Assembly (NCBI GenBank): GCA_052437175.1
Contig: JBQVOK010000001.1
Location: 227,388 to 291,387, forward strand
Direction of reading: 5' to 3'
Length of the DNA: 64,000 nt
Source of the DNA: Flavobacteriales bacterium
Lineage (GTDB): Bacteria; Bacteroidota; Bacteroidia; CAIKAF01
Below are positions 8,816 through 63,299 of the stretch, in pieces. Each line of letters begins with the position of its first letter. Position 1 is the first letter of the stretch. The notes beneath the pieces were generated by a model. That model was not told where the DNA came from. It ran no database searches and worked only from the letters and a program-made list of their open reading frames with translations. Both the position numbers and the translations under genes were made by a program.

Positions 8816-8862
8816 AAGCAGTTTATGGCCTGGGTTTACAGACAGGCTAAAATAGCAATAAC

Positions 8863-9501: not shown

Positions 9502-9910
9502 ATTTCATATTGGTAAATTTTATATAGCCCAAAGCAGAACGGCCGCTGCGAAAACGACGTTTGATAAGGGCTGCGTATCCGGGTTTGTATAGGATGACTA
9601 AGATAGCCTGAATGCCCTAAAGAAAGTAGCTGCTTTTTCTGTAAAATGTTTAGCCTGAATATGTCCTGTGTAAAAGCCCGGATGTTTGTCTTGCCGGAGA
9701 ATGTGTAAAGATGTAGTTCCCTGTGTTTTTATATAAGGAGTCGAAATCGACCCCTTTAGCACAGGCATGATTCCGGTGGTGTATTCACATTTCTACACCT
9801 ACCGAATTCGAGAAGTTTAAAAAGGGGAAGGGCTGCCGCTTTGTGCCGTACGTAGGTTAATTCCATCGAATCCGATGGGTTTACAGGCGGGCGGGCCGGG
9901 GATGGTGCAG

Positions 9911-10414: not shown

Positions 10415-10419
10415 CTACA

Positions 10420-11034: not shown

Positions 11035-11048
11035 AGTTTAGCGATAGA

Positions 11049-13580: not shown

Positions 13581-13589
13581 AGTGATTAA

Positions 13590-14543
13590 TTATTTATGGT
13601 ATGCTGCGTTTCGGTCTTTAATGGCTTTTAGAATTAATTGATTATTCATTTGCTGCTTCTCATTTAGCACCGTTTCTTTAATGGCATCAATGCAGGCAAG
13701 CGATATTTCAGCATGACTCAAGCCATTAATATTGGGCAGGAGCTCTTCAAAATTTATTCTTTTTCTGAAACGTGCAAGTCTGTTTTTCAGCAGGGCACGT
13801 TTCTCCTCTATGCTTGGTAGCTGATATAAAATCACATCGTCAAACCTGCGAAAAAGAGCCTGGTCTAAAAGTTCTTTATTATTGGTAATGGCAATAATAA
13901 GGCTATCAGAATTATCCCGTTCAATAAATTGAAGAAAAGAGTTTAGGACTCTGCGCATTTCGCCTACGTCATTCTCTCTACTACGTTCACCGCCTATAGC
14001 ATCAAATTCATCAAAAAGATAAATACCCTGTTTCTGCTCAATTAGATCAAATATTTGACGAAGCTTAGCACTGGTTTCTCCCATGAATTTTGTTACCATT
14101 TTATCCATTAAAATGGTGTAAAGTGGTAAGTTCAGCTCGTTGGCAATAATCGAAGCAGTCAGGGTTTTTCCTGTTCCGGGGGGGCCTGAAAGTAAAATTT
14201 TCCTCCGATTTTCTAAGTCATGTTTGCGAAGTTTGTCTCGCTGTACAAACTCTGAAATAATCCGGTTGATTTTGGACCTTATGTCTTCAGAAGCAATTAT
14301 GTCTGAAAGATTGACAGCAGGTACATTTTCCTGTATTAATCCTTGTAAATCAGGAGTGAATATTTTTGTTTTATGTTTTGCTTCTTTTGCTTTGTCTATT
14401 ATGCTCTTAATATCATTTGCTACTAAGGTGTGTCCTAATTTAGCTTCATGGGCTGCAATTTGTAGGGCAACGGTAGTAAAGCGTTCCGGCTCATTATTAT
14501 AGTGAGCCTTAATTAATGAAATTATATAATCAGCTTTTGCCAT
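13590..14543 (-). CDS. Classic-clade AAA ATPase (single AAA module with a helical N-domain)
   Basis: Walker A (GPPGTGKT), Walker B (IYLFDEFD) and second region of homology (LDQALFRRFD). AT-rich. The stop lies 9 bp before the S8 peptidase start. Confidence 0.8.
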   Translation of the reverse strand: MAKADYIISLIKAHYNNEPERFTTVALQIAAHEAKLGHTLVANDIKSIIDKAKEAKHKTKIFTPDLQGLIQENVPAVNLSDIIASEDIRSKINRIISEFVQRDKLRKHDLENRRKILLSGPPGTGKTLTASIIANELNLPLYTILMDKMVTKFMGETSAKLRQIFDLIEQKQGIYLFDEFDAIGGERSRENDVGEMRRVLNSFLQFIERDNSDSLIIAITNNKELLDQALFRRFDDVILYQLPSIEEKRALLKNRLARFRKRINFEELLPNINGLSHAEISLACIDAIKETVLNEKQQMNNQLILKAIKDRNAAYHK

Positions 14544-14581
14544 TCAAATCTTGGGGGTTACACTATTCGTGTGCTATTTTA

Positions 14582-14998
14582 TTATCTATTGATTAACATC
14601 TCTAACCGTTGGAGCATCTCATCCTTTTCCTTCAACATGCGCTCATACAGTGCAATCTTTTCGTCATACAGGCTGAGGATTTTATTCTCATACAGCTCTA
14701 TGATCTTTTCCAATGGATTGAATTGGTTCTGAACAGAATTATCGTGAAAGTTGTTATTGATATTATGAATGGCCTGTTCCGCGTCAAAGTTTTGTATGGC
14801 TTCCATGGGCAGTTTCAATACAGTCGCTATCTGCTTTAGGATATTGTCCTCAATGGTTTCGCGCTGTTCCAGCAGGCTTATTTTCTGTTGATTCCAGTCC
14901 TCGCCCAGTTCCCAGGCAAGGGCGTCCTGCTTCATGCCCAGCATCTCGCGGAAGCGTTTAATATTGCGGCCCTGGTGTATTTTAGTGCTGTTACGCAT
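14582..14998 (-). CDS. XRE-family helix-turn-helix transcriptional regulator with coiled-coil C-terminus
   Basis: HTH motif IKRFREMLGMKQDALAWELG. Immediately upstream (38 bp) of the AAA ATPase on the same strand. Confidence 0.65.
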   Translation of the reverse strand: MRNSTKIHQGRNIKRFREMLGMKQDALAWELGEDWNQQKISLLEQRETIEDNILKQIATVLKLPMEAIQNFDAEQAIHNINNNFHDNSVQNQFNPLEKIIELYENKILSLYDEKIALYERMLKEKDEMLQRLEMLINR

Positions 14999-37629: not shown

Positions 37630-39522
37630 TTATTTTTTGATGAACAGGGAACTGAGTGTACGTTCTGCCGTTTCGAGACGGATGATGTACATACCGCTTT
37701 GCAGTGCCTGCAGATCTATGCTGAAGGTATTTTCCGTAATGTTCCGGCGCTCCTGTACGGTTTTGCCGGCCGCATCGCAGATCGAAACCGAAGCGGTCCC
37801 GAAAGACGCGGGCAGTACCAGGTTCAGCAGCTCGCCGGCCGGGTTGGGGAACATGCGTATACCGGCCGCTGCAAAATCAGGGTTGCCGAGGCTGTTCACC
37901 GTGATCTGGGTACAGTGTTCGTCTACGCAACCGTTGGCCGCTGTGGCAGTAAGACAAACGGTATAGGTGCCCGCCGCTGTGTAAATGTGCACGGGACTTT
38001 GCAGGGCCGAAGTGTTACCGTCTCCAAAATCCCAGCTGTAGGTAGCCGCCCCGGTAGACGTATTCTGGAAGCTTACCGCCTGGCTCTGTGCGCTGGCGTT
38101 GGACGTGAACTGTGCTACCGCGGAAGGAAGCAGGGTCACGGTAAGCTGGTCGGTCTGGTCGCAGCCGTTAATGTCGTTCACCGTTACGCTGTAGGTACCT
38201 GCGTTGCTGACATTGATGGAAGAGCTGGTCTGTCCGCCGTTCCACAGGTAGGTATTGTACATATTGCCGGCGCTCAGCGTCAGCGGTGTTCCGGCGCAGA
38301 TACTGGTGTCGTTGCCCAGGTTCAGCGGTATAAAGGTGTCGTATATTTTTACAAAGGCCGAGTCTTTGGAAGTACAGCCCAGTGCATTTACCGCCGTTAC
38401 GCTCACAAAGCCCAGGCTGGCCGTGTGGGTAGAGTTGCCGGTGGCGCCGGTGCTCCAGCTGTAGCTGTTAAAGCCGGTCTGTACAAAGGCAAAGGCCGAG
38501 TCGCCGGGGCAGATAAAAATACTGTCCATCGGTATATTTACATACAGGAAGCTGGTGGCTTCTTCCATGCCAGCGCTGAAGGTAGGCGTAAGCGCAGCGT
38601 ATTTGCGGGCGCGGATCCAGTTGATGTTGATGGAACCCGTACCCGATGAAATGCCGCCGATACACAGGCGCAGGTCTGCATCGCGGGGGTGCTGGTTATC
38701 GGTGGTGCTCATGCCCGCGGCGCTGGGGTGTGAACCGGTGATATCGCCCGTACCGATCCAGGTTGTGCTCCACAGACCGGCATTGGCACCCAGGGTAAAC
38801 AGGCCGCTGGCCCAGTTGTGTCCCTGGCAGTAACCGGTATTGGTGCCCGATTTGGAGATACGCACCTGTCCGCCGCCCTGCAGGGTTCCGTAACCGCGGT
38901 TATCGGCATTGTTCTTGAGCCAGTAGATGCCCGGCCAGTCGCCCGAGGCAGATACCACCTGTGCTTCGGCGGTATATACGCTGGTCTGCGGGAATACGGT
39001 ATTGGACGTAAGTATATGGGATCCGGTCCAGCTCATGTTCAGGTTGCCGCCGCTCAGGGTATTGGTACCGCTGCCGCAGGCATCCACGCTGAAGTTCTGC
39101 AGGGTATTGCCGTCGAAACCTTCGAACAGGCTGAAGGTGGCGCTTCCATTGGAACCTGCCGCTGCCACAGCGTTGCCGTAGATCATATAAACGGTGGCCG
39201 AACCATTGGCCGGTACAGAAGGCACTTTTACCCAGATGGAAGTGCTGGCCGTATTGATGCCCGACTCAATGAAATAGGGGAGGGAATCGCAGCAGCCGGT
39301 ACCGGTAAAACGGATATCCTGGCCCTGTGACTGCATTTTGCCGGCCGAAATGAGCGCAGCCGTATTTACGGTAATAAGCACTTCATGTGCCGTAAGCGCC
39401 GTAGCATTGGGATTTGTTACCTGGATAGGCATGCGGTACAGCCAGCCCGAAAAACAGGCCTGACCAAATACCACGCCTGCCGGCAGCAGGGCCAGCAGCA
39501 TCAGCATGTAGATCTTCTTCAT
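37630..39522 (-). CDS. T9SS C-terminal-sorted secreted protein with PKD-like/Ig-like domains
   Basis: Signal peptide. Repeated Ig/PKD-like modules (…SWDFGDGNTS…). C-terminal T9SS type-A sorting domain (FPNPAGELLNL...SGMYIIRLE). Confidence 0.75.
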   Translation of the reverse strand: MKKIYMLMLLALLPAGVVFGQACFSGWLYRMPIQVTNPNATALTAHEVLITVNTAALISAGKMQSQGQDIRFTGTGCCDSLPYFIESGINTASTSIWVKVPSVPANGSATVYMIYGNAVAAAGSNGSATFSLFEGFDGNTLQNFSVDACGSGTNTLSGGNLNMSWTGSHILTSNTVFPQTSVYTAEAQVVSASGDWPGIYWLKNNADNRGYGTLQGGGQVRISKSGTNTGYCQGHNWASGLFTLGANAGLWSTTWIGTGDITGSHPSAAGMSTTDNQHPRDADLRLCIGGISSGTGSININWIRARKYAALTPTFSAGMEEATSFLYVNIPMDSIFICPGDSAFAFVQTGFNSYSWSTGATGNSTHTASLGFVSVTAVNALGCTSKDSAFVKIYDTFIPLNLGNDTSICAGTPLTLSAGNMYNTYLWNGGQTSSSINVSNAGTYSVTVNDINGCDQTDQLTVTLLPSAVAQFTSNASAQSQAVSFQNTSTGAATYSWDFGDGNTSALQSPVHIYTAAGTYTVCLTATAANGCVDEHCTQITVNSLGNPDFAAAGIRMFPNPAGELLNLVLPASFGTASVSICDAAGKTVQERRNITENTFSIDLQALQSGMYIIRLETAERTLSSLFIKK

Positions 39523-50653: not shown

Positions 50654-50676
50654 ATGAAAACTAAACGTTGAGAGAC

Positions 50677-52587
50677 ATGAAAAAAAGTTTACTCTTTGCA
50701 GGCTTGTGCCTGGGGGCTATTAACTTAGCCAGTGCTCAGATCTTTTCTGAAAATTTTAACGGAGTGCCGCTGACGGGCGGTACAGGTGTTTTACCTGCAG
50801 GCTGGGCCCAGTACAATGTAGACGGTCTTACGCCTGCTTCTGCAACCTCTTATATGGGTACTTCGGCCTGGGTGGTACGCGCCCAGAGCGGTAATAATGT
50901 AGCTACCAGTACCAGCTGGTATAATCCGGCCGGTGTTTCCAACGACTGGATGGTTACGCCCGCCATTACTATTCCCAATACGGGCAACCCATACCTGCGA
51001 TTTAAAGAACAGGCCTTCGAAGCGGCCTATGCAGACGGATACCGTGTATTTATCTCCACTACCGGTAACACGGTGGCCGATTTCACAAATCCTCCCGTAT
51101 TAACGGTTGCTGCCGCCAATGCTACCGGACTTACCACCAAACTGGTGAACCTCTCCGGCAATATGGGCCAGACCATTTATATCGCTTTCCAGAACAACAG
51201 CAACGATAAAAACCTGCTGTTCATCGACGATGTGGAAGTAGTTGACCTGCCGGCTTACGATGCCCGCCTCAACAACATCAACCTGCCGCGCTACGGTGTG
51301 GTGAATACCAATACGTCTATGATCCTGAACGTAAGCAATGACGGTTCCCAGGCCATTACCAGTCTTACCATCGACTGGAACGACGGTGCCGCTCACAGTG
51401 CTACCATCAGCGGTCTGAACATCGCCCCGGGCGCTTCGGCCAACGTTACACACACTACACCGGTGAATTATTCTACCGTGGAAGAAAAAAACATCAGCGT
51501 AAACATTACCCAGGTAAATGCCAATACCGATGCCGTTCCGGCCAACAACACCGGTACAAGCCGTTTCAACTCCACCAGCTCTGCTCCCGATAAGGGCGTG
51601 CTGATCGAGGAAGGTACGGGTACATGGTGCGGATGGTGCCCGCGTGGTGCCATTGCCATGGAATACATGTACGATACTTACGGTGCACAGGGCTTCATCG
51701 GTATTGCCGTGCACAACCAGGACCCGATGACCGTTTCTGCCTATGACAATGCGGCCAACTTCGGCGGTTACCCGAGCTGTAACGTAGACCGTACTATCCT
51801 GGATGCTTCTGTATCACAGGGGCTGTTCGAGCAATACTTTGCTGCCCGCAAAGACCTGCCGGTTCCGGCTTCGATCAGCATTACCCCTACGGTAAGCGGT
51901 CAGGACATTACCATCCCGGTATCTGCCCAGTTCGTAACAAAATTTGCTGCTGCTAACTTCCGCCTGGCTGTTGTAGTGGTTGAAGACGATGTTACCGGTA
52001 CTTCTTCCGGTTATAACCAGACCAACTATTATGCCGGCAATGCCAATGGCCCGATGGGTGGTTATGAGTCTAAACCCGATCCGGTTCCGGCTGCCGATAT
52101 GGTATACGATCACGTAGGCCGCGCCCTGCTGGGAGGTTACAACGGACAGACAGGAAGCGTTCCGGCTGCCATCAACGACGGACAGACTGCCAGCTACACC
52201 TTTAACTACACCGTACCTGCCACCAGCGATATGGCCCAGATCAAACTGGTTGCCCTGCTCATTGACCAGGCCGACGGTTCTGTGGTAAATGCCAAAGAAG
52301 TAAAAGTACAGGGTGGTGTTTCTGTAGAAGAGAAAGACGAAAACGCTTTCAGCTTTAACGTATACCCGAACCCGAGCACCGATTTCCTGAACGTAAGCCT
52401 GGAAAACAACAGCAACGTGAATACACTTACGGTTGTGGACATGAACGGTAAAGTGGTTTACACACGCGAGATCAGCGGTTCAGAGAACCTGCTCAGCATT
52501 CCGGTATCGCAGCTGTCAAATGGCAACTACCTGATCAGTGTTTCAGGTGCCGCTGCCAGCTACACCCAAGTATTCGTGAAAAACTAA
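50677..52587 (+). CDS. T9SS C-terminal-sorted secreted protein with a choice-of-anchor-J-like N-terminal domain
   Basis: Signal peptide MKKSLLFAGLCLGAINLASAQ, then the IFSENFNG motif. C-terminal T9SS sorting domain (FNVYPNPSTDFLNVSL...NGNYLISV). The true start is ATG 50677, with a TAcaTTTG box upstream. Confidence 0.7.
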   Translation: MKKSLLFAGLCLGAINLASAQIFSENFNGVPLTGGTGVLPAGWAQYNVDGLTPASATSYMGTSAWVVRAQSGNNVATSTSWYNPAGVSNDWMVTPAITIPNTGNPYLRFKEQAFEAAYADGYRVFISTTGNTVADFTNPPVLTVAAANATGLTTKLVNLSGNMGQTIYIAFQNNSNDKNLLFIDDVEVVDLPAYDARLNNINLPRYGVVNTNTSMILNVSNDGSQAITSLTIDWNDGAAHSATISGLNIAPGASANVTHTTPVNYSTVEEKNISVNITQVNANTDAVPANNTGTSRFNSTSSAPDKGVLIEEGTGTWCGWCPRGAIAMEYMYDTYGAQGFIGIAVHNQDPMTVSAYDNAANFGGYPSCNVDRTILDASVSQGLFEQYFAARKDLPVPASISITPTVSGQDITIPVSAQFVTKFAAANFRLAVVVVEDDVTGTSSGYNQTNYYAGNANGPMGGYESKPDPVPAADMVYDHVGRALLGGYNGQTGSVPAAINDGQTASYTFNYTVPATSDMAQIKLVALLIDQADGSVVNAKEVKVQGGVSVEEKDENAFSFNVYPNPSTDFLNVSLENNSNVNTLTVVDMNGKVVYTREISGSENLLSIPVSQLSNGNYLISVSGAAASYTQVFVKN

Positions 52588-52938: not shown

Positions 52939-54180
52939 ATGGTATCTGCAGTAAATTACAGCCTGTTTCGTTTCTTTTTCGGAATATTAATGATTCCGCA
53001 GGTGCTGCATTTAACCCCACACGTACACGACCTCTCCAAATCGGCTTTTGTGTTCCATTACCCGGGTCTTTCCTTTATCGAGGCGTATTCTCACGGGTTG
53101 ATCGACCTGTTGCAGGCTTCGGCGATCGTTTCTGCCGTTCTGCTGGCCCTGGGCATTATACCCCGTGTGGCGGCCCTGTTGTTCATGTGTTCGTTCGGGT
53201 ACCTGTTCCTGATCGATATATCGTTCTATAACAATCACTACTACCTGTGGTGCCTGCTGGCCTTTCTTTTTGCCTGCACCGAGGCGGGACTTTCGATCTC
53301 CGTATTCGATGTTTTCCGGCGCCGTTTTAACAAACAGATGCATGTATGGAATTATGCGGCATTCGGTCTGCTGATCACGATCGTATATTTTTACGGAGGA
53401 ACGGCCAAACTCAACGGCGACTGGCTGCAGGGCTATCCCATGCGCCTGTATACCCATGCCAAGGGGTTTCCGTTTCCCGATCTCAGCGGGTATTTTCTCA
53501 GCTACACGGGTTTACTGTTCGACCTGCTGATCGGTCTGCTGCTCTGGCGTTTTGCCCGTTCTGTATGGGTAGTAGCGCCGATGCTGGTTTTTCATATCAG
53601 CAATTATTTCCTGTTCGATATCGGCGAATTCCCGCTGGTCATGATCGCCGCCTGGCTGATCTATATTCCGCTGAGCCGTTTCCCTTTGCGCGATATCCTA
53701 AAGGAGACAAAGGCCCTGAAAAAGCCGGTTTTTGCAATCCTGGGCCTGTTTTTTGCCTTTCAGCTGCTTTTCCCCGCCCGGGCCCTGCTGTTATACGGCG
53801 GTAATGTGGCCTGGCACCGGCAGGGGTATAATTTTTCCTGGCGGATGATGCTCAATAATCACAAGCCTTCCTATTTTCAGTTCCTGGTGGATATGCCGGA
53901 ACGGGACGACCGCTATCATGTAGACTTTGAAAAACTGCTTACCTACCGGCAGTTCTATCATACCTATCATGAACCCTATATGATCTGGCAGCTGGCGCAG
54001 AAACTGCACAGCGACGCACAGAAAAAATACGGGAACACGCCCATACATGTATACTGTAAATCGCTGGTGGCACTGAACCAGCATCCGCCACGGTCACTGA
54101 TCAATGAACGTGCTGACCTGGCGGCTGTGCCTTTTCACCATCTCAGCCCGAATCACTTTGTAAATACATTCACTCCATGA
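52939..54180 (+). CDS. HTTM-domain membrane protein (vitamin-K-dependent gamma-carboxylase-like) with a soluble C-terminal extension
   Basis: Multi-TM N-terminal half with the HTTM hallmark (FRFFFGILM..., NNHYYLWCLLAFLF). I take the start at ATG 52939. The stop overlaps the next gene's ATG by 4 bp (ATGA). Confidence 0.6.
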   Translation: MVSAVNYSLFRFFFGILMIPQVLHLTPHVHDLSKSAFVFHYPGLSFIEAYSHGLIDLLQASAIVSAVLLALGIIPRVAALLFMCSFGYLFLIDISFYNNHYYLWCLLAFLFACTEAGLSISVFDVFRRRFNKQMHVWNYAAFGLLITIVYFYGGTAKLNGDWLQGYPMRLYTHAKGFPFPDLSGYFLSYTGLLFDLLIGLLLWRFARSVWVVAPMLVFHISNYFLFDIGEFPLVMIAAWLIYIPLSRFPLRDILKETKALKKPVFAILGLFFAFQLLFPARALLLYGGNVAWHRQGYNFSWRMMLNNHKPSYFQFLVDMPERDDRYHVDFEKLLTYRQFYHTYHEPYMIWQLAQKLHSDAQKKYGNTPIHVYCKSLVALNQHPPRSLINERADLAAVPFHHLSPNHFVNTFTP

Positions 54181-57100
54181 ATAAAACGTATACCCTTCTG
54201 TCACTATTCACCCTGTTCTTTGGCCTTTTTGCGCTGCCGGCGAAATTCCATGCTCAGATCACCAACGGGCAGGTCAATTATGAGCTGCGTGTAGACCAGT
54301 GGTACCAGTCCTGCGATAATGACTGGATAAATGCGGACGACAATGAGATTCGTATTGGTCTAAGCAGCGATGGTAATACGGGAGGCACGGCTTCCTGGAC
54401 CTCCGGGGGTAACGGGGCCAGCTGCGGGGGTAACCTGTATGTGCGGCGCTGGCAGGCCGATGCTCCGTCTACGGTAACCAACAGCAATACCTTGCTGTAT
54501 TACTGTACAAACCGCAATAATATAAATGATAACTTTTCCATTTATTACAATTCCTGGGAAGAAGACGGTTCGCCGGACTGTGACCCCGGCGGGGATGCCT
54601 GCCAGTCGAACGGTACCTACACCTACACGTTTAAAAGTGCGTCCAAAACGCCTTCACTCTGGTGGGGCTACACCGGAACTGCCGGAGGCTCTTTTATGAC
54701 GGGGAACAGCGGCGACTTTTTTGCCAAAACGGTATGGCGTTATACATACGGGGATGGCTGCGGATCGGCGCTGAATTTCGGAACGCTTTCTTCGGGTACC
54801 ACCTATTCGCACGTGAATTCAAACCGTCCTTCACCAGGCGGTGCTTCGGGCAATATGGGATACACCTCGGTATCGGGTAATAGCTCCCAGGATGTATTTT
54901 ACCAGTTTAGCATTTCGTCTCCTGCCAGTGTGGTTATTTCTACCAATAATGCAGGAACGGATTACGATACCTATCTCCGCCTGTATAATTCTACGTCCTG
55001 CGGTACACAGATCGCTTTTAACGACGATTACGGCGGCTCTGTGAACTCTACGATCAATATGGACCTGTGCGCCGGCACCTATGTGATACAGGTGGAAGGT
55101 TTTTCTACCAGTTTCGGGAATTTCAACCTTTCGGTGCAGGCGACCAACAGACCTGTGAACGGGGGCACGATAGCGGGCATCACCAATGGTGTAAATATCT
55201 GTCCCGGAGATGATCCGGGTGCTTTTACAAGCAGCGTGGATGCCACAGGTGCCGGGGGAGTTACGTACCAGTGGGAGTCTTCTACAACAGGTGCCGGTTC
55301 GGGTTATAGTAATATCGTGGGGCAAACGGCAAATACCTATGATCCGGGAGCTCTGACGCAAACGACCTGGTTCCGGCGCCGGGCCACAGATGGTTGTGGT
55401 CAGGTGGGGTATTCCAATGTGATCCAGGTGGTTATGAATACTGCATCGACAGCGCCGACGGCTATTTCAGGAACTACCACTATTTGTGCCGGCAACAGTA
55501 CCACGCTTACGCTTTCGGGCGGCAGCGCAGGCACGGGAGCCACGGCCCAGTGGTTCAGCGGCAGCTGTGGCGGTACCCTGGTAGGTACGGGCAACAGCAT
55601 AACGGTATCTCCGACATCGAACACCACATACTTTGTACGTTATTCAGGCACCTGTAACACCACTACCTGTGCTTCTGTAAACGTAACGGTAAATACACTA
55701 TCGGTAGCGCCTACGGGCATTACGGGTACAACAACGATCTGTGCGGGGGCTTCCACCACGCTTACGCTCTCGGGCGGCAGTGCAGGAACGGGAGCCACGG
55801 CCGAGTGGTTCAGCGGCAGCTGTGGCGGTACATTAGTAGGTACGGGCAACAGCATAACGGTATCACCGACTTCGAACACCACGTACTTTGTACGCTATTC
55901 TGGAACCTGTAACACCACTACCTGCGCATCTGCAACGGTAACGGTCAACAGCCTCTCCACAGCTCCCACAGCCATTACGGGAACAACTACTCTTTGTGCC
56001 GGTAACAGTACCACGCTCACACTTTCGGGTGGCAGCGCGGGCACGGGCGCTGTGGCTGAATGGTACAGCGGCAGCTGTGGCGGTACCCTGGTGGGCACGG
56101 GCAACAGCATCAGTGTATCCCCGGCTTCGAACACTACGTACTTTGTACGCTATTCGGGCACTTGTAATACAACCAGTTGTGCATCCGTGGCGGTGACGGT
56201 AAATGCAGCACCGGCAAGCTTTACGCCTTCGGTACTTACCTCCACACCGCTGTGTTACCGTGGAAATGCGGAGGTATCCAGCGGCGGCAGCCAGTCAGGA
56301 GTTACGTACCAGCTGCGCGATAATACCACCAATGTAGGCACTTCGCAGGCCGGTAACGGATCTGCACTCAGCTTCCTGACCGCCAACCTTACGGCCGGCA
56401 GCAGCAGCTATAACATCCTGGCCACGTCGGGCGCCGGTTGTACACTTTCTGTGAACGTACCTGCCATTACGGTAACATCAGCGCCCAACGCGATCGGTAA
56501 CAATAACGATACACGTACCTGTTACGTAAATAATAACAACAACTTTGTAGAATTCATTACTTCCAACCGCGATATCCTGGCCATAAATCCCGGTAGCCAG
56601 AACCTGGGCAATGTAACCGTAACGGAATATGTAGACGGCACACCGATCGGTGTGCAGGCCTGCAACACTACCCAGCCTGAGTTTATGGTAACGGCGCTGA
56701 ACCGCCGCTGGGTGATCAGTTCTACGGTGCCCCCCGTATCCCCGGTAAGTGTACGCCTGTACCTTGCCGATACGGATGTAACGGCCCTGGCCGCGGTGGC
56801 CAATGCCAACCTGAATACCACGGACGACGTATCGGGCCTGGGTTCACTGCAACTGACCAAATACAGCGGTGCGAACGAGAACAGCACCTTTACGGACAAC
56901 TGTAACGCAGGCGGAACGGTTACCCTGCACAGCCAGGCGGCAAACGGCAGCATCACGGCTCCCATCGCGGGTAATGCCATTGTAGCCGGTTCTTACGTTA
57001 CCTACAGTATCCCGGGATTCTCGGAACTCTGGCTCAACGGTACCAGTATCAGCAGCCCGCTGCCGGTTACGCTCAACAGTTTTGATGCCGTGTGTAAGGA

Positions 57101-57614
57101 CGGCCGGGGACTGATCAGCTGGAGCACCGTTTCTGAAGTGAACAACGCCTACTTTACAGTGGAACGCAGCGCCGACGCACACAGCTGGGAAGTGCTGCAG
57201 ACCGTGAGCGGGGCAGGGAACAGCAACAGCCTGCTTAGCTACAGCGTTACCGACGAACGCCCGGAAAACGGTATTACATACTACCGCCTCCGCCAGACCG
57301 ATTACAACGGCGACGAAGAACTTTTTGCGGAAAAAAGCATTTTCTGTTCGGCAGAAGATACTCCGGTACTGCTTCTGTTCCCCAATCCGGCAGAAGATGT
57401 GCTGAACCTGAGATTCTACCTGGACGAAAGCTCGGATGTGGAAATGAGCATCTACGATGCCCGCGGCGCCCGCCTGCAGCTGGAGAAATGGAGCGGGGTA
57501 CCGCAGGGTGAACTGGCGCGTACGATCGTACTTTCGGACATGGCCCCCGGGGTATACAACCTGCGCCTGCGTATCGGCAAAGGACTGTACACGAGCGCTT
57601 TTGTAAAGCGATAG
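54177..57614 (+). CDS. Giant T9SS-secreted surface protein. Architecture: PPC (pre-peptidase C-terminal-like) domain, 3 tandem 85-aa Cys-bearing Ig-like repeats, a conserved ~400-aa module, and a T9SS sorting domain
   Basis: Signal peptide. PPC-like segment (DYDTYLRLYN...CAGTYVIQVEGF). Three 85-aa repeats (ICAGNSTTLTLSGGSAGTGATAQWFSGSCGGTLVGTGNSITVSPTSNTTYFVRYSGTCNTTTCAS). T9SS type-A sorting domain at the C-terminus. Confidence 0.8.
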   Translation: MNKTYTLLSLFTLFFGLFALPAKFHAQITNGQVNYELRVDQWYQSCDNDWINADDNEIRIGLSSDGNTGGTASWTSGGNGASCGGNLYVRRWQADAPSTVTNSNTLLYYCTNRNNINDNFSIYYNSWEEDGSPDCDPGGDACQSNGTYTYTFKSASKTPSLWWGYTGTAGGSFMTGNSGDFFAKTVWRYTYGDGCGSALNFGTLSSGTTYSHVNSNRPSPGGASGNMGYTSVSGNSSQDVFYQFSISSPASVVISTNNAGTDYDTYLRLYNSTSCGTQIAFNDDYGGSVNSTINMDLCAGTYVIQVEGFSTSFGNFNLSVQATNRPVNGGTIAGITNGVNICPGDDPGAFTSSVDATGAGGVTYQWESSTTGAGSGYSNIVGQTANTYDPGALTQTTWFRRRATDGCGQVGYSNVIQVVMNTASTAPTAISGTTTICAGNSTTLTLSGGSAGTGATAQWFSGSCGGTLVGTGNSITVSPTSNTTYFVRYSGTCNTTTCASVNVTVNTLSVAPTGITGTTTICAGASTTLTLSGGSAGTGATAEWFSGSCGGTLVGTGNSITVSPTSNTTYFVRYSGTCNTTTCASATVTVNSLSTAPTAITGTTTLCAGNSTTLTLSGGSAGTGAVAEWYSGSCGGTLVGTGNSISVSPASNTTYFVRYSGTCNTTSCASVAVTVNAAPASFTPSVLTSTPLCYRGNAEVSSGGSQSGVTYQLRDNTTNVGTSQAGNGSALSFLTANLTAGSSSYNILATSGAGCTLSVNVPAITVTSAPNAIGNNNDTRTCYVNNNNNFVEFITSNRDILAINPGSQNLGNVTVTEYVDGTPIGVQACNTTQPEFMVTALNRRWVISSTVPPVSPVSVRLYLADTDVTALAAVANANLNTTDDVSGLGSLQLTKYSGANENSTFTDNCNAGGTVTLHSQAANGSITAPIAGNAIVAGSYVTYSIPGFSELWLNGTSISSPLPVTLNSFDAVCKDGRGLISWSTVSEVNNAYFTVERSADAHSWEVLQTVSGAGNSNSLLSYSVTDERPENGITYYRLRQTDYNGDEELFAEKSIFCSAEDTPVLLLFPNPAEDVLNLRFYLDESSDVEMSIYDARGARLQLEKWSGVPQGELARTIVLSDMAPGVYNLRLRIGKGLYTSAFVKR
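55446..56210 (+). repeat. Intragenic tandem repeat, 3 x 255 bp (near-identical at DNA level)
   Basis: Three successive 255-bp units encode the 85-aa module. The units differ by only a few substitutions. Confidence 0.85.
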
Positions 57615-57914
57615 TGAAATTTTTTATGCATAGCCGAATAAACGGTCCCTCCGGGGGCCGTTTACGGCATGTTTTTTGTAGACGGATTTGCATATTGAGA
57701 AGAAAAGTTCTTTCTTTGATATAACAGTTAAATAATTCGATCACCAAAAAACAAGAAATTTAAACCCGATATCTGTCACCTGAACCGTACTATCACCAAA
57801 AATCCGATAACACAGATGCGTCCGTACGTAACCCCCTGTACAGGACCTGACACAGAACCGAATACCTGAACAGATGGTGTGGTGTGGTTGTGGCCGGTAA
57901 GGAGCCTCAACACC

Positions 57915-58994
57915 ATGAACAGGAAAGTATATACACTGCTTTTTCTGGTAACGATATGTATCGTTAGTCTGTTTGTGCGCTCCTGTGTCATACACAGGAA
58001 AACGGTTTATTTCCGCTACGATATCCCCCCGGAACTTCCGCAGGCCTACCAGCCTTCGCATAATGCAACCACCGAGGCCGGCGTGGCCCTGGGCAAAACG
58101 CTCTTCTTCAGTACGGAACTTTCCCGCAACAATACGATCTCCTGCAGCAGTTGCCACGACCAGGAAAAGGCGTTTGCCGAGAGCAGGACCACGTCTGAAG
58201 GGATCGACGGACAAAAAGTGAACCGTAATTCCATGCCCCTGTTCAACCTGGCCTGGGTAGACCGTTTTTTCTGGGACGGCCGTGCAGCTTCGCTCGAAGA
58301 GGCTGTGAACTTCCCCATAACGGCGCACAACGAGATGGACAGCGATACCAACCGGCTGGTGCAGCGCCTGAACCGCTCCGCACGTTTCCGCAGGCAATTT
58401 TACGCCGCATTCGGTATAGAAGAAGTGCGCTATGTACACGTACGCATGGCCCTGGCGCAATACCTGCGCAGCATTACCTCCTACGCCAGTCCGCTCGACC
58501 GTATGTATCCCATTGTAAGCGAACTGATGGCACAGGGTCTGAGTCAGCCCCAGATCATGCAGCGGGAGTTCGGCTTTTCCGACAAGACCATACAGACCCT
58601 GCAACTGTGCGAAACCTGCCATTCGAACATTACCTACGGTAACAACAAAATGAAGAACAACGGCCTGGATATCTCCAATGCAGGCGATATTGGTTTTGCC
58701 GTGGTAAGCGGTAAGAAAACGGATGAGGGCCTTTTTAAAGCGCCCAGTTTCCGGAATGTGGCGTTTTCAGCTCCTTATATGCACGACGGACGTTTTGCCA
58801 CCCTCGAAGAAGTACTTGAACATTACAACTCCGGAATACAACCCAATCCCAATTTAAGCGAAGAACTCCGCGATGAGGCCGGAAATCCCCTGCGTCTGCA
58901 CCTGGGAGAACGCGAAAAGAAGGAAATGCTCTTTTTTTTAACCCGACTGATGTCGGACACAAGTTTTATCACCAATAAACAATACGCTCTATGA
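57915..58994 (+). CDS. Di-haem cytochrome-c peroxidase (CCP/MauG family)
   Basis: Two CxxCH haem-binding motifs (CSSCHDQ, CETCHSN) and the conserved NVAFSAPYMHDG region. I take the start at ATG 57915. The stop overlaps the next gene's ATG by 4 bp. Confidence 0.8.
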   Translation: MNRKVYTLLFLVTICIVSLFVRSCVIHRKTVYFRYDIPPELPQAYQPSHNATTEAGVALGKTLFFSTELSRNNTISCSSCHDQEKAFAESRTTSEGIDGQKVNRNSMPLFNLAWVDRFFWDGRAASLEEAVNFPITAHNEMDSDTNRLVQRLNRSARFRRQFYAAFGIEEVRYVHVRMALAQYLRSITSYASPLDRMYPIVSELMAQGLSQPQIMQREFGFSDKTIQTLQLCETCHSNITYGNNKMKNNGLDISNAGDIGFAVVSGKKTDEGLFKAPSFRNVAFSAPYMHDGRFATLEEVLEHYNSGIQPNPNLSEELRDEAGNPLRLHLGEREKKEMLFFLTRLMSDTSFITNKQYAL

Positions 58995-61900
58995 ACCGAA
59001 TGTTACCTGTTTTTTTAGCACTGATGCTCTGCCTTACGGCCGCTGCCCAGAAGAGTGAGACCGGTACGGGAGAGAACCCGGTATCCCGCAGGGAAGCTGC
59101 GGATCCCGTGATCATGAAATTATACGGTGCGTCGGGCCCGTATGCAAAGTACGATCCGGCCCGGGAACTGCCTGAAAAACGTACGGAAAATGCGAAGCAC
59201 TTCCGTAACGAAGACGGTACCGAAACCGCCCTGCTTACGGCCGGCCCCATGCACTATTTTGAAAACGGCGAATGGCTCACTTCGTCCAACGAGATCATAC
59301 CCGTGTCCATGCCCCTGTACCCGGGCTATGTGCTGATGAACCGCCATAATCAGTATAAAACCCTGTACGGTACGGCGGGTAAAGGTATGGCCATCAAAAA
59401 GGCCGACGGCAGCGATCTCCTTTCCGGCTACACCCAGGAAGGTGTTTTCCTGTACGACCTGGATAAAAAAATGCAGAAAAACGTATTGCAGTACAACAAA
59501 GAAGCGCTGCCGCTGCGGTCTGCCGAAACGGACAACCATCTGGAATACGGCTTAACGCCCGATATCAGCCTGCAGGTAACACAGCTTACAGGCAAGATCA
59601 AATCGCAGTATTTCATTGGTTCGAATCCCTTTGCGGCGTATGGCGGTTCAAAATACCTGGGCTTTGCCGAGCAGCTTACTTTTGCCGAACCGGTAGAGAT
59701 CGTAAACGATGAACAGAAAAAAGGCCTGCTGGTAAAAAATGCCGCCGGCGAAGTGCTGTTTTCGTACAATGAAGCTTATTATTTTCAGCAGAACCGCAAA
59801 AGCTCTTCGGAGTATGAAGAGGCCGAATACCTGGTAACCAAAGTGGACGATTTTACGTATAAAATAGTACTGCTGGTGCCTATTGACTGGTTCAATAACC
59901 CCGAGCGTGTGTACCCGGTGATCGTGGACCCAAGCATTACCTGCACGCCCAACGCTTCTATTTACTGGACAGGAACCACCAATGAAGATGCAGATGCACA
60001 CAGTTCAGACAATATCAAGGTCGGTTTTTACGATTGCAGTGGCTGCGATGACGAAACCTGGGCGCCTTATGCCAAGATCAATCTTTCTTCCATCCCCGAC
60101 GGGTCCTGCATACAGAATGCATCTTTCTCGATGTACCAGCATACCTGGCGCAACGGGGGCGGTAATGACGGACTGCGTTTCGAGATCGGCTGGGCCAATG
60201 TGGAACCGGTATCGGCTTCCTGGGCTTCGATCCGCGATAATGTACAGGGCCTTTCGGAACGCTACGCCAACTGGGACGTTTGGGGAACACCGGGAAACTG
60301 CGGCGGTTGTAACGGCGGTTACGATTATCCCGAATCGCCCAACGGATGGAAAAACTTTAACATCGACTATGCACTGCACCGTAACCGGGTGGCGAATCGT
60401 TTAACTACGGATTACATCACCTATGGTCTGGATATGACCTATAATGCAAACGACTGTTTCTGGTGCTGGGGCGATGAAACCAATGAGCTGGAATATTACG
60501 GCTGGAGCAATGGCAGCCGTCCGCAGCTCTCAGTCACCTACCAGAGCGCTTCGGTAGCGCCCACCGCCATCAGCGGAACCACAACGATATGCAGTGGCGG
60601 CAGTACAACGCTTACCGCGTCCGGTGGTTCGGTAGGTTCAGATGCCACCATCCAGTGGTTCAGCGGCAGCTGCGGCAGCACGGTGATCGGCACGGGCAAC
60701 AGCATTACGGTGTCTCCTGCATCAAATACCACCTATTTTGTGCGTTATTCCGGCAGTTGCAACACCACCGGCTGTGCATCCGTTACGGTAACGGTAAATA
60801 CGGTTTCCTCAGCTCCTACAGGTATTTCAGGAACTACCACCATTTGTGCCGGCAACAGCACCACGCTTACGCTTTCGGGCGGCAGCGCGGGCACAGGCGC
60901 CACGGCCCAGTGGTTCAGCGGCAGCTGCGGCAGTACGGTGATCGGTACGGGCAACAGCATAACGGTATCTCCAACCTCGAATACTACGTATTTTGTACGT
61001 TATGCAGGTACCTGTAACACCACTGCCTGTGCCTCTGTAGCGGTAACGGTAAACACTCTGTCCACAGCCCCTGCGGCTATTACAGGCAGCACCAGCATCT
61101 GTTTGGGTAACAGCACCACGCTTACGCTTTCGGGCGGCAGCGCGGGCACAGGCGCCACGGCCCAGTGGTTCAGCGGCAGCTGCGGCAGCACGGTGATCGG
61201 CACGGGTAACAGCATAACGGTATCTCCAACCTCGAATACTACGTATTTTGTACGTTATGCAGGTACCTGTAACACCACTACCTGTACTTCGGTTTCGGTT
61301 ACGGTGAATACTCCGTCGGCAGCCCCAACGGCCATAACAGGCAGCACTACCATCTGCACGGGCGGCAGCACTACGCTTACGCTTTCGGGCGGCAGTGCGG
61401 GCACAGGCGCCACGGCCGAATGGTTCAGCGGCAGCTGCGGCGGTACAGCGGTAGGTACAGGCAATAGCATTACGGTATCCCCGGGCTCGAATACCACGTA
61501 TTTTGTACGTTATGCAGGGACTTGTAACACCACTGCCTGTGCTTCTGTAGCGGTAACGGTAAATACCCCGTCGGTAGCCCCAACGGCCATAACAGGCAGC
61601 ACTACCATCTGTGCAGGCGGCAGCACTACGCTTACGCTTTCGGGCGGCAGTGCGGGTACAGGCGCCACGGCCCAATGGTTCAGCGGCAGCTGCGGCAGCA
61701 CGGTGATCGGTACGGGCAACAGCATTACGGTATCGCCGGGCAGCGCTACTACGTATTTTGTAAACTACGCAGGCAGCTGCAATACAACGGCCTGCGCATT
61801 CGTACCGGTAACGGTAAATCCGGTACCGGCAGCCTTTACACCGCTGATCAGTACTTCCACACCAGTTTGTTACCGCGGAAATGCAGAGATCACCGTAGCT

Positions 61901-63244
61901 TCTTCTGTGGCGGGCCTTAGCTACCAGCTGCGCGATAATACTACCAATATCGGCAGCGCACAGGCCGGCACGGGCAGCACACTTACTTTCCGCACGGATA
62001 ATCTTACCGCAACCAGCACCACCTATAATATACTGGCTACCGCTGGCGCCGGCTGTACACTTTCGGTGAACGTACCCGCCATCAGTGTTGCGGCCTCGGC
62101 TACTTCGCTTGCCAATAATAACGATACACGTACCTGTTACGTAAACGGGAACAATGCCTTTGTGGAATTTGCTATGTCCGGACGCAGCATCATTGCCGTG
62201 AACCCGGGTACACAAGACCTGGGCCTGGTAACGGTAACCGAGTATGTAAACGGTACACCGGTGAACATACAGGCCTGCAATACCAATTCTGTAACGCAGC
62301 CGGAGTTCAACAGCGCGGCCCTGAGCCGTCACTGGGTGATCACGTCCTCCAATCCGCCGGTAACGCCCGTGAATGTACGCCTGTACCTGGCAGACGGCGA
62401 TGTAAGCTCCCTGGCTGCCAGCGCAAATTTCAACGTAAACCCCGATGACGACGTAAGCGGGATCGGTTCTCTGAAACTGAGCCGTTACAGCGGGCCGAAT
62501 GAAAATGCCACTTTCAGCGATAACTGCAACACCGGTGGTAATACCTACCTGCATGCGCAGAGCGGAAACGGTACCATAACCGCAGGGATATCCGGCAATG
62601 CCATTGCAGGTGCTTCCTATGTTACCTATACGGTGAACGGGTTCTCCGAATGGTGGCTGAGCGGTACCGGTGCCACCAGTCCGCTGCCCATCGTACTCGG
62701 TAGTTTTAATGCCGAATGTGCTAAGGGTGGTGTAGAGATACGCTGGACCACCATGTCGGAAGTGAATAACGCCTACTTTACCATAGAGCGCAGTGCCGAT
62801 GCAGAGCACTGGGAGCTGGTACGCGAAATAAGCGGTGCAGGCAACAGTAATACGCTGCTGAATTACAGCATCACCGATGATCGTCCGCTGAACGGTATTT
62901 CATACTACCGCCTGCGGCAGACCGATCATAACGGGGACAACGAGACCTTTGCCCCGCAGAGTGTTACCTGTTTCGGCAACGCCCAGAATGGCCTGCTGAT
63001 CTACCCCAATCCTTCGAACGACTATTTTGTACTGAACTTCAGCACAGCTGCGGATATGGCAGGTTCCGTAGAACTCATGGACATGACCGGGCGCCGGGTG
63101 GCCATACAGAACGGCAGCTGGCAGAGCGGTATGAACAGCTTTACGTTTAAGGACCTGGCCGCTTTCCTTCCAGGTGCGTATACACTGCGGATCAGTGGCG
63201 AAGGGAAAGTACTTTATACGGCGCCTGTAATTATAAAGCGTTAA
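58991..63244 (+). CDS. Giant T9SS-secreted surface protein, paralog of 54177-57614. It has a distinct ~515-aa head, 5 tandem 85-aa repeats, a conserved ~400-aa module and a T9SS sorting domain
   Basis: Signal peptide MNRMLPVFLALMLCLTAAAQ. Five 85-aa repeats. The C-terminal ~480 aa are co-linear with the first paralog (NNNDTRTCYVN..., RHWVITSSNPPVTPVNVRLYLADGD...). T9SS type-A sorting domain at the C-terminus. Confidence 0.8.
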   Translation: MNRMLPVFLALMLCLTAAAQKSETGTGENPVSRREAADPVIMKLYGASGPYAKYDPARELPEKRTENAKHFRNEDGTETALLTAGPMHYFENGEWLTSSNEIIPVSMPLYPGYVLMNRHNQYKTLYGTAGKGMAIKKADGSDLLSGYTQEGVFLYDLDKKMQKNVLQYNKEALPLRSAETDNHLEYGLTPDISLQVTQLTGKIKSQYFIGSNPFAAYGGSKYLGFAEQLTFAEPVEIVNDEQKKGLLVKNAAGEVLFSYNEAYYFQQNRKSSSEYEEAEYLVTKVDDFTYKIVLLVPIDWFNNPERVYPVIVDPSITCTPNASIYWTGTTNEDADAHSSDNIKVGFYDCSGCDDETWAPYAKINLSSIPDGSCIQNASFSMYQHTWRNGGGNDGLRFEIGWANVEPVSASWASIRDNVQGLSERYANWDVWGTPGNCGGCNGGYDYPESPNGWKNFNIDYALHRNRVANRLTTDYITYGLDMTYNANDCFWCWGDETNELEYYGWSNGSRPQLSVTYQSASVAPTAISGTTTICSGGSTTLTASGGSVGSDATIQWFSGSCGSTVIGTGNSITVSPASNTTYFVRYSGSCNTTGCASVTVTVNTVSSAPTGISGTTTICAGNSTTLTLSGGSAGTGATAQWFSGSCGSTVIGTGNSITVSPTSNTTYFVRYAGTCNTTACASVAVTVNTLSTAPAAITGSTSICLGNSTTLTLSGGSAGTGATAQWFSGSCGSTVIGTGNSITVSPTSNTTYFVRYAGTCNTTTCTSVSVTVNTPSAAPTAITGSTTICTGGSTTLTLSGGSAGTGATAEWFSGSCGGTAVGTGNSITVSPGSNTTYFVRYAGTCNTTACASVAVTVNTPSVAPTAITGSTTICAGGSTTLTLSGGSAGTGATAQWFSGSCGSTVIGTGNSITVSPGSATTYFVNYAGSCNTTACAFVPVTVNPVPAAFTPLISTSTPVCYRGNAEITVASSVAGLSYQLRDNTTNIGSAQAGTGSTLTFRTDNLTATSTTYNILATAGAGCTLSVNVPAISVAASATSLANNNDTRTCYVNGNNAFVEFAMSGRSIIAVNPGTQDLGLVTVTEYVNGTPVNIQACNTNSVTQPEFNSAALSRHWVITSSNPPVTPVNVRLYLADGDVSSLAASANFNVNPDDDVSGIGSLKLSRYSGPNENATFSDNCNTGGNTYLHAQSGNGTITAGISGNAIAGASYVTYTVNGFSEWWLSGTGATSPLPIVLGSFNAECAKGGVEIRWTTMSEVNNAYFTIERSADAEHWELVREISGAGNSNTLLNYSITDDRPLNGISYYRLRQTDHNGDNETFAPQSVTCFGNAQNGLLIYPNPSNDYFVLNFSTAADMAGSVELMDMTGRRVAIQNGSWQSGMNSFTFKDLAAFLPGAYTLRISGEGKVLYTAPVIIKR
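60545..61823 (+). repeat. Intragenic tandem repeat, 5 x 255 bp
   Basis: Five near-identical 255-bp units, followed by a sixth divergent copy. They are homologous to the repeats at 55446-56210. Confidence 0.85.
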
Positions 63245-63270
63245 AAATTAATTGCATAAACACAGCAGGA

Positions 63271-63299
63271 AGGCCATCAGAAAATGATGGCCTTTTTTA
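63271..63299 (+). terminator. Rho-independent terminator
   Basis: Hairpin aggccatcag-aaaa-tgatggcct followed by T6. Confidence 0.7.

Follow-up and report, generated by a model that had tools for sequence, protein, structure and literature searches.

Two neighbouring pairs of a predicted redox enzyme and a type IX secretion cargo protein in a Flavobacteriales genome

Results

Layout of the locus

This study describes two adjacent gene pairs in a Flavobacteriales bacterium (assembly GCA_052437175.1, contig JBQVOK010000001.1), located at positions 52939-63244 of the analysed stretch of 64,000 nt, which is called the window throughout. In each pair, an enzyme gene is directly followed by the gene of a very large cargo protein of the type IX secretion system (T9SS): an HTTM-family membrane enzyme resembling the gamma-glutamyl carboxylase that depends on vitamin K (VKGC) precedes giant 1, and a di-haem enzyme of the cytochrome-c peroxidase (CCP)/MauG family precedes giant 2. 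The genes and the elements between them are as follows (aa, amino acids; CTD, C-terminal sorting domain):

52939..54180, + strand: VKGC-like HTTM membrane enzyme, 413 aa, assigned with Pfam and an alignment with human VKGC
54177..54180, + strand: ATGA stop/start overlap of HTTM gene and giant 1
54177..57614, + strand: giant 1, T9SS cargo of 1145 aa with signal peptide, head 1, Ig_7 repeats, a module of ~380 aa and a type A CTD
57641..57664, + strand: tentative hairpin AAACGGTCCC-TCCG-GGGGCCGTTT, read by eye, with a distant T-run after it
57915..58994, + strand: MauG/MbnH-type di-haem enzyme (CCP), 359 aa, hydrophobic at the N-terminus (signal or anchor)
58991..58994, + strand: ATGA stop/start overlap of CCP gene and giant 2
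58991..63244, + strand: giant 2, T9SS cargo of 1417 aa with signal peptide, head 2, Ig_7 repeats, a module of ~380 aa and a type A CTD
63267..63297, + strand: terminator-like hairpin and T-run 3' of giant 2, from the terminator scan

The HTTM open reading frame (ORF) has an alternative upstream ATG at 52873, which would give a protein of 435 aa. The terminator scan also placed a strong terminator upstream of the HTTM gene, and it did not flag the hairpin at 57641-57664. Because a 300-nt spacer with this hairpin lies between giant 1 and the CCP gene, the two pairs are probably separate operons, and one operon for both pairs was rejected on account of this spacer.

The original prediction, made from the letters of this DNA, had described both ATGA overlaps, and they were reproduced at 54177-54180 and 58991-58994; the two giants of 1145 and 1417 aa, with shared modules, T9SS sorting domains and differing heads, were likewise recovered. 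As 4-nt overlaps are common in bacterial operons, the overlap alone is not above chance; the signal that is above chance is the adjacency conserved in other genomes.

Conservation of the HTTM and head-1 pairing

The HTTM orthologues form a well-separated clade (P0001-P0056) at 44-99% identity, with further relatives at 35% or less. The clade is rare, being present in nine genomes when 185,579 species were scanned with one genome per species, and its hosts belong to the Flavobacteriales (Crocinitomicaceae, Taishania and Flavobacterium luminosum), Cytophagales, Sphingobacteriales and Chitinophagales/Saprospiraceae. At the three loci fetched first (L001, L002 and L003/L004), where the HTTM homologues are 63, 56 and 52% identical, proteins of 948, 877 and 569 aa with a T9SS CTD are encoded directly 3', in wholly different neighbourhoods.

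The N-terminal head of giant 1 (head 1, aa 1-335) lies directly 3' of the HTTM gene in all eight species-scan loci with readable downstream sequence (L009-L016), and in L094 and L095, which have diverged most within the clade (44-45% identity), the HTTM gene precedes genes for head-1 proteins, whose called lengths are 3510 and 3134 aa. Altogether, the head-1 gene abuts the HTTM gene in 12 of 12 independent lineages tested (the window, L001, L009-L016, L094 and L095), whose flanking contexts are unrelated. The junction ranges from -4 nt (an ATGA in four cases) up to +18 nt, measured from called gene starts where available (L001 and L095 included) and with an approximate partner start in L011. 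Head 1 was found at none of 71 out-group HTTM loci. It is 62-69% identical in the partners at the three loci fetched first, 62-71% identical in most HTTM partners and 35-49% identical in the most divergent ones; in most lineages it is better conserved than the HTTM enzyme itself (62-71% versus 52-63%), and the stalks differ.

The original prediction had made its case depend on the adjacency being conserved in relatives, and it is conserved, in all 12 HTTM lineages and in five CCP lineages. These data provide strong evidence for a functional link between the HTTM enzyme and head 1, which are very probably an enzyme and its client. The only genome with this pair that is not labelled as a metagenome-assembled genome (MAG) is that of Flavobacterium luminosum HXWNR70 (NZ_JAMLJM010000001.1; L016/L003), an apparent cultured isolate whose partner protein of 569 aa consists of head 1 and the CTD only; it is the most practical experimental model for this pair.

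Heads and stalks of the giant proteins

The domains of the two giants were placed as follows:

54255..54872, + strand: head-1 N-domain, giant 1 aa 27-232
54873..55181, + strand: PPC-like (collagen-binding-domain-like) beta-sandwich of head 1, giant 1 aa 233-335
55182..57356, + strand: giant 1 stalk, Ig_7 repeats and the conserved ~380-aa module (aa 680-1060)
57375..57611, + strand: giant 1 T9SS type A CTD (Por_Secre_tail, TIGR04183)
59048..60550, + strand: head 2, giant 2 aa 20-520
62999-63241, + strand: giant 2 type A CTD

Both proteins start with a predicted signal peptide, read from the sequence as a hydrophobic N-terminus ending FHA/Q in giant 1 and AAA/Q in giant 2, and both end in a sorting domain, for which giants 1 and 2 score 41.2 and 30.8 bits with Por_Secre_tail (cutoff 27) and 32.7 and 30.6 bits with TIGR04183 (cutoff 23). 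Pfam finds three Ig_7 stretches in giant 1 and six in giant 2. The proteins are 63% identical over 828 aligned C-terminal positions, including the co-linear module of ~380 aa (giant 1 aa 680-1060, giant 2 aa 947-1327; 65% identical), and the heads (giant 1 aa 1-335, giant 2 aa 1-520) share nothing.

The giant 1 stalk resembles that of giant 2 and of its orthologue L005p at 63-65% aa and 72-79% DNA identity (window 55182-57356 versus 60551-62971), whereas its resemblance to the stalks of other head-1 proteins is only ~40% over ~100 aa. Because the giant 1 stalk is closer to that of giant 2, stalks appear to move from one T9SS cargo gene to another in the same genome. The partner proteins measure between 560 and more than 3500 aa, some have Ig_7 and others do not, and they vary in repeat number and modules; the 585-aa partner in L008 is essentially a head only, with no Pfam match on record, CTD included. 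Thus, each enzyme's partner is the N-terminal head, and the stalk is interchangeable. As the stalk is shared and can be swapped, the paralogy of the giants is incidental to the pairing. The original prediction had coupled each enzyme to a giant T9SS paralog; the coupling holds, and the partner turns out to be the head, with variable stalks, rather than the paralog.

An antisense ORF of 660 aa (60827-62809, - strand) lies inside the giant 2 Ig_7 repeats. Its translation is of low complexity and rich in Arg, Ala and Gly, and it is most likely an artefact of repetitive GC-rich sequence and not a gene.

The HTTM protein as a VKGC-type enzyme

The HTTM protein matches HTTM (PF05090) with 152.6 bits and VKGC_lumenal_dom (PF22777) with 111.8 bits, each against a Pfam cutoff of 27.7, the latter over profile positions 2-148 of 152, and it finds human VKGC in phmmer at E=1.4e-21. 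No NCBIfam family matched at E<=0.01, that of SdpB included, and an SdpB-type export or maturation factor was rejected for want of such a match. Residue equivalences were taken from the alignment with human VKGC and an alignment of 29 orthologues:

53230-53238, + strand: N98-N99-H100, of which N99 and H100 are the equivalents of human N159 and H160
53407-53409, + strand: K157, equivalent of human K218
53521-53523, + strand: D195, equivalent of human D263
53593-53604, + strand: H219..N222, equivalents of human H287 and N290
53812-53850, + strand: lumenal motif WHRQGYNFSWRMM

In the human enzyme, K218 is the catalytic base, D263 and N290 belong to the catalytic centre, and carboxylation requires residues 374-418 (PMC13486548); the substrate Glu is held by N159, H160 and Y395, the last of which stacks on the hydrophobic residue before each carboxylated Glu, the 'Eup' rule (PMC12647623). 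All 29 orthologues retain the equivalents of K218, D263, N290, H287, N159 and H160 unchanged; at position 297, the equivalent of Y395, 24 of them have Y and five have H. In the lumenal motif (human ~390-404), the W390, W399 and M401/M402 equivalents are invariant. These data identify the HTTM protein, at the level of sequence, as a VKGC-type enzyme with a complete predicted epoxidase and Glu-binding site.

Head 1, the putative client of the HTTM enzyme

The head-1 N-domain begins at the predicted mature N-terminus QITNGQVNYELRVDQW and contains many invariant Asp, Asn and Glu residues and four invariant Cys. Two of the conserved acidic sites follow an aromatic residue:

54282-54284, + strand: E36, in the invariant Y-E of 'NYELR'
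54555-54566, + strand: invariant W-E-E-D of 'SWEED', with E128/E129

Among 19 head-1 N-domains, Y-E is found in 18 (W-E in the other) and the second W-E in all 19; the Glu of 'NYELR' sits ten residues from the predicted mature N-terminus. Both invariant Glu, each after an aromatic residue, would fit the 'Eup' rule of PMC12647623, which we regard as a weak indication.

The AF2 model of head 1 (pLDDT 88, pTM 0.86) is an all-beta sandwich. In Foldseek, the matches to solved structures are chiefly ColG collagen-binding/PPC domains of clostridial collagenase (1nqj_A, TM 0.77 on target; 2o8o_A, 0.72; tandem 5iku), of which the top entry and the tandem s3a-s3b module were solved with calcium, and some C2-domain proteins are among the weaker matches. 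The original prediction of a PPC-like domain in one of the giants is borne out: the Pfam PPC score is below cutoff (22.8 versus 25.9 bits), and it is backed by the ColG/PPC fold and by a profile match of the PPC part to PDB 2luw. That profile search finds the PPC part only, with no PDB sequence relative of the N-domain.

A word-indexed protein search with a concatenated head-1 and head-2 query yielded 21 head-1 clusters, a small family. The N-domain (aa 27-232) is restricted to HTTM-linked proteins, and the PPC-like part (aa 233-335) is common to other T9SS cargo (P0263-P0277).

The di-haem enzyme

The di-haem CCP/MauG gene of the original prediction was confirmed, with 178.2 bits for CCP_MauG (PF03150) in Pfam and two CxxCH motifs. 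The residues of interest are:

58143-58157, + strand: CSSCH (C77/C80/H81)
58272-58274, + strand: inter-haem W120
58608-58622, + strand: CETCH (C232/C235/H236)
58818-58826, + strand: E-H-Y304

C77/C80/H81, C232/C235/H236, W120 and Y304 ('EHY') are invariant in ten members of the CCP clade. In the alignment, Y304 is matched with the Met of 'ETMG' in the bacterial CCP (bCcP) 1iqc of N. europaea, which we take to be the E-haem ligand, and with the Tyr of 6e1c. The latter, labelled 'Di-heme enzyme', is the best PDB relative, ahead of canonical peroxidases and MauG, and the next-closest relatives of the CCP, at ~40% identity, include many MbnH-MbnP fusions. His/Tyr ligation separates MauG-type enzymes from canonical bCcPs (PMC11892367). 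The enzyme is therefore assigned to the MauG/MbnH type, with predicted His/Tyr ligation, and an ordinary peroxidase was rejected on the grounds of the Tyr at the Met position; judged by sequence, it is related to MbnH and MauG and forms a separate clade. Both the HTTM and the di-haem enzyme thus retain, as predicted by alignment, the residues expected in active, protein-modifying members of their families.

MbnH converts a Trp of the neighbouring MbnP to kynurenine, and MauG builds tryptophan tryptophylquinone (TTQ) in preMADH (PMC11951088). MbnH/MbnP and MauG/preMADH are clear precedents for a MauG-type enzyme next to an exported protein.

Head 2 and its link to the di-haem enzyme

Head 2 (AF2 model, pLDDT 88.9) comprises an N-terminal beta-sandwich (~aa 36-310), in which Foldseek finds a weak resemblance to accessory beta-sandwiches of glycoside hydrolases and lyases, and a C-terminal subdomain (~aa 315-520) that resembles the chondroitin-sulfate-binding carbohydrate-binding module (CBM) 8wab with TM 0.62 on target. 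The modelled folds make a glycan-binding role plausible. No Pfam family, PF20243 included, matches head 2, nor did a profile search find a PDB sequence relative, and head 2 as an MbnP-like protein was rejected for lack of Pfam or sequence support.

The word-indexed search with the concatenated heads found almost no head-2 relatives, and exhaustive HMMER was used, which returned 836 representative clusters with E<=1e-3, 33 of them with E<=1e-30. Among the 150 head-2 matches listed, nearly all are N-terminal, and most of the proteins have 500-3700 aa. A metagenome scan with a tight head-2 alignment led to a single locus, and the gene context of head 2 covers eight lineages only.

Directly 3' of CCP homologues at 79, 50 and 52% identity lie genes whose products have 1503, more than 3330 and 585 aa, and in these three partners head 2 is 31-74% identical. 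In total, CCP abuts head 2 in five lineages (the window, L005/L006/L089, L007, L008 and L092), among which the heads are 30-76% and the CCPs 46-79% identical; the junction is the same ATGA overlap in L005/L006, +10 nt in L007 and L008, and +70 nt in L092. The L007 partner of CCP P0123 (11094-end) is a head-2 giant of 3360 aa per gene call. It also holds two PPC-like segments (aa 555-709 and 1430-1520) resembling the PPC part of head 1, so that PPC modules recur in stalks.

The residues that are invariant in the five linked heads and changed in the unlinked L090 and L093 include the following:

59273-59275, + strand: W95, candidate CCP-related residue
60191-60193, + strand: W401, candidate CCP-related residue
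60452-60469, + strand: DCFWCW, candidate CCP-related CxxC motif (C489-x-x-C492)

The CxxC motif and W401 occur together in 10 of 28 head-2 sequences. It was predicted beforehand that P0287, a close relative without the motif, would have no CCP; it lies on a 4.2-kb contig, where the 298 nt upstream of it contain no coding sequence and no similarity to CCP, which excludes an abutting CCP and not a distant one. The CxxC motif is thus present in five of five linked and none of three unlinked heads (Fisher p=0.018, from small numbers). The link between CCP and head 2 is facultative. We regard the evidence for a functional link as moderate, and an enzyme-client relation as somewhat probable.

Neighbouring genes in the window

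Further T9SS cargo genes lie at 50668-52587 (+ strand; Cleaved_Adhesin, Omp28 and CTD) and 37630-39522 (- strand; DUF2341, PKD and CTD), and this region of the window is rich in surface-protein genes. At 4-4614 (+ strand), an ORF of 1536 aa has no Pfam family at E<=1e-4, and a TPR protein follows at 4643-6325. A low-GC stretch at 8800-14600 (- strand; GC 0.41-0.47 versus 0.52-0.57 elsewhere), with genes at 8863-9501, 11049-13580 and 13590-14543 (- strand), contains the anti-phage pair IetA (AAA ATPase, E=7e-71) and IetS (subtilase, E=2.5e-42) together with PDC-S22 (E=5e-104), a candidate gene for defence; the stretch is probably a defence island acquired by horizontal transfer.

Discussion

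A proposed model of two maturation cassettes

We consider it rather likely that the locus carries two independent two-gene cassettes, each formed by a periplasm-facing redox enzyme and a downstream exported client with the partner head, and that the enzymes would mature the heads before T9SS export. The model is built on observations of gene order, conservation of the pairing, specificity of enzyme for head, active-site conservation and predicted folds. The original prediction had envisaged one adhesin/maturation-enzyme system; the conserved adjacency and the active-site residues speak for such maturation, and the single system is replaced by two that stand side by side. In both cassettes, the stalk of Ig_7 repeats, ~380-aa module and CTD would only display the head on the cell surface via T9SS.

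In cassette 1, the HTTM enzyme would use a quinol and O2 to modify the unfolded head 1 as it leaves the Sec channel, possibly while the uncleaved signal peptide tethers the substrate in the manner of the animal propeptide. The quinol would be menaquinol, since menaquinones are the native respiratory quinones of Bacteroidota. The most likely chemistry would be carboxylation of acidic residues, with E36 and E128/E129 as candidates, although this assignment is itself a tentative one. Once modified, head 1 may fold as a beta-sandwich that serves as a binding module, perhaps one that depends on Ca2+, and be exported. In cassette 2, the di-haem enzyme would use H2O2 to oxidise or cross-link residues of the CBM-like subdomain in the subfamily of heads with C489-x-x-C492 and W401, which would parallel the action of MbnH on MbnP and of MauG on preMADH.

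Several points weigh against this model. The heads as substrates, the modified residues and the chemistry are all deduced from comparisons of sequences and models. Concerning cassette 1, the lumenal motif departs from the animal consensus (L394 to G and D400 to R, both invariant in the orthologues, and H404 to N, D or H). The chain is ~345 aa shorter than the 758-aa human VKGC, without its C-terminal ~250 aa; its end corresponds to about human residue 490-510, so that it lacks the larger part of the propeptide-binding clamp B and of the C-terminal domain. A Leptospira VKGC orthologue reportedly epoxidises vitamin K without carboxylating. There was no VKOR among the scanned window genes, in which no search aimed at VKOR was made, and neither a Gla-domain (gamma-carboxyglutamate) nor a propeptide signature was found in head 1 or giant 1 with Pfam and NCBIfam; given this result and the modelled all-beta sandwich, head 1 as a Gla domain was rejected. 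Concerning cassette 2, the best NCBIfam matches of the enzyme, TIGR04039 (MbnH family; 201.7 versus 362.85 bits) and TIGR03791 (MauG; 170.9 versus 443.85 bits), are under the equivalog cutoffs, head 2 has no similarity to MbnP, and three related head-2 genes (L090, L093 and P0287) have no adjacent CCP. The correlation of motif with linkage comes from eight lineages that are phylogenetically non-independent, and the aromatic residues within the CxxC motif are not conserved.

The departures of the HTTM enzyme from the animal carboxylase lend some weight to another explanation, in which it acts on or with head 1 without being a carboxylase: the epoxidation of menaquinol would serve as an oxidant or strong base for a different reaction, e.g., hydroxylation or the formation of disulfides or other cross-links at the four invariant Cys of head 1, or the protein would be a folding or export factor in the membrane, in the way that SdpB serves SdpC. 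The pairing evidence is the same for this explanation, to which the altered motif, the missing C-terminal part, the Leptospira orthologue and the giant-virus VKGC-like proteins, proposed to be epoxidase-only (PMC13486548), all lend themselves. Unlike these viral proteins, however, the HTTM enzyme keeps the lumenal domain and the equivalents of the Glu-contacting N159, H160 and Y395, and the bacterial member MloH is a real carboxylase (bioRxiv 10.64898/2026.08.19.745780; PMC12647623); the SdpB-like form is further opposed by the lack of an NCBIfam match. We therefore regard a non-carboxylase role as rather unlikely.

The resemblance of head 2 to CBMs and to accessory beta-sandwiches of glycoside hydrolases and polysaccharide lyases, the facultative CCP link and the fact that enzymes of the CCP family are mostly peroxide scavengers (PMC11892367) would also suit a different arrangement, in which enzymes and heads are merely co-regulated, the heads bind an external polymer, and the enzymes act on small molecules or peroxide. 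This is improbable in view of the MauG-type Tyr in place of the peroxidase Met and of the HTTM and head-1 linkage, which holds in 12 of 12 lineages at near-zero spacing and with one head only. In addition, because the enzymes are periplasmic or membrane-bound and the mature heads are on the surface, the only compartment common to both would be the periplasm during transit. Finally, the adjacency could be meaningless, a result of inherited gene order or of hitch-hiking in a region where T9SS cargo genes abound, with several more of them in the window; 4-nt overlaps are common, and there are close relatives among the loci (L005/L006/L089). However, pair and spacing persist over four Bacteroidota orders with wholly different flanking genes, out-group HTTM genes are never found with head 1, and a sequence motif predicts the presence of CCP, which leaves this explanation very improbable overall and strongly disfavoured for cassette 1. 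The model of two cassettes with dedicated clients is thus the one that we retain.

Comparison with known systems

The HTTM enzyme shares with animal VKGC (GGCX) the HTTM membrane and lumenal domains, the equivalents of the catalytic and Glu-binding residues (that of Y395 largely), most of the W390-M402 motif, an active side that faces the compartment traversed by secretory proteins, and a quinol cofactor, which here would be menaquinol. It differs in its putative client, an all-beta T9SS head without Gla domain or propeptide, and in its apparent dedication to one neighbouring gene. MloH is a Streptomyces vitamin-K-dependent carboxylase of malonomycin biosynthesis (Law 2018, via bioRxiv 10.64898/2026.08.19.745780 and PMC12647623). 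It is likewise a bacterial HTTM/VKGC-type enzyme encoded beside the genes of its substrate pathway, with a real carboxylase activity, and it differs in its substrate, which is a small polyketide-peptide intermediate modified on an aspartyl residue, within the cytoplasmic-membrane setting of its biosynthetic cluster, and not a large exported protein.

Bacillus subtilis provides a further HTTM-family membrane protein, SdpB, which is encoded in an operon with SdpA and SdpC and is needed for the maturation of the exported SdpC; SdpB lacks the VKGC lumenal domain, and SdpC is a small toxin precursor. Concerning T9SS, the known maturation of cargo consists of N-terminal pyroglutamate formation, CTD cleavage with attachment to anionic lipopolysaccharide (A-LPS), and O-glycosylation. 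The cassettes agree with these steps in the periplasmic or surface location of the processing, and Q is the predicted first mature residue of both giants; the known steps, however, are generic to many cargos, whereas here a redox enzyme lies beside a single cargo head.

The CCP enzyme shares with MbnH-MbnP and MauG-preMADH the di-haem architecture, the His/Tyr signature, the inter-haem Trp and a position beside, or fusion with, the exported protein that is oxidised. Its partner is different, namely an uncharacterised head of ~500 aa, part of a T9SS giant, in which one subdomain is CBM-like. In addition, the scores lie below both equivalog cutoffs, the link is facultative, and the discriminating feature is CxxC and not the MbnP WxW.

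Possible exported clients of other HTTM enzymes

The out-group loci with HTTM and the VKGC lumenal domain (L018-L088, e.g., L020, L072 and L019) have conserved exported neighbours of their own. At 29 mostly planctomycete HTTM loci, a gene for a lipoprotein-like protein of ~150 aa lies upstream, and in 20 of the 29 a gene for a purple-acid-phosphatase-like protein of ~470 aa lies downstream; at three out-group loci, the neighbour is PhoX. In L019, a Bacteroidia MAG, the neighbour is a T9SS protein with Ig_7 and CHU_C and an unrelated Gly-rich head. Because out-group HTTM genes have their own conserved exported neighbours, these data point to a more general rule, whereby every VKGC-like enzyme would be paired with an exported client of its own.

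Implications

Full-text literature searches on the HTTM domain, on T9SS together with vitamin-K-dependent, and on type IX secretion together with MauG returned no description of either pairing. To our knowledge, protein gamma-carboxylation is known from animals only. The only assigned bacterial VKGC-type function that we found is that of MloH, which has a small-molecule substrate (bioRxiv 10.64898/2026.08.19.745780; PMC12647623). The HTTM enzyme and head 1 provide a first candidate natural protein substrate for bacterial VKGC homologues. The locus offers a rare and strictly conserved enzyme-client pair with a predicted intact active site, named candidate residues and one apparently cultured host. 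It is possible, though on present evidence doubtful, that bacteria make Gla (or carboxy-Asp) proteins, in which a menaquinol-dependent VKGC homologue, located in the inner membrane of some Bacteroidota, would carboxylate the conserved E36 and E128/E129 of an adhesin head and turn it into a Ca2+-dependent module displayed by T9SS. If the carboxylation reading is true, the same logic would extend to the phosphatase-linked HTTM enzymes of Planctomycetota.

Cassette 2 would extend the MauG/MbnH principle to a large family of adhesin heads, in which the motif would predict the members that need the enzyme. For T9SS, the heads and stalks of giant cargo proteins appear to be shuffled independently, and the two cassettes would add a cargo-specific periplasmic redox maturation to the generic steps.

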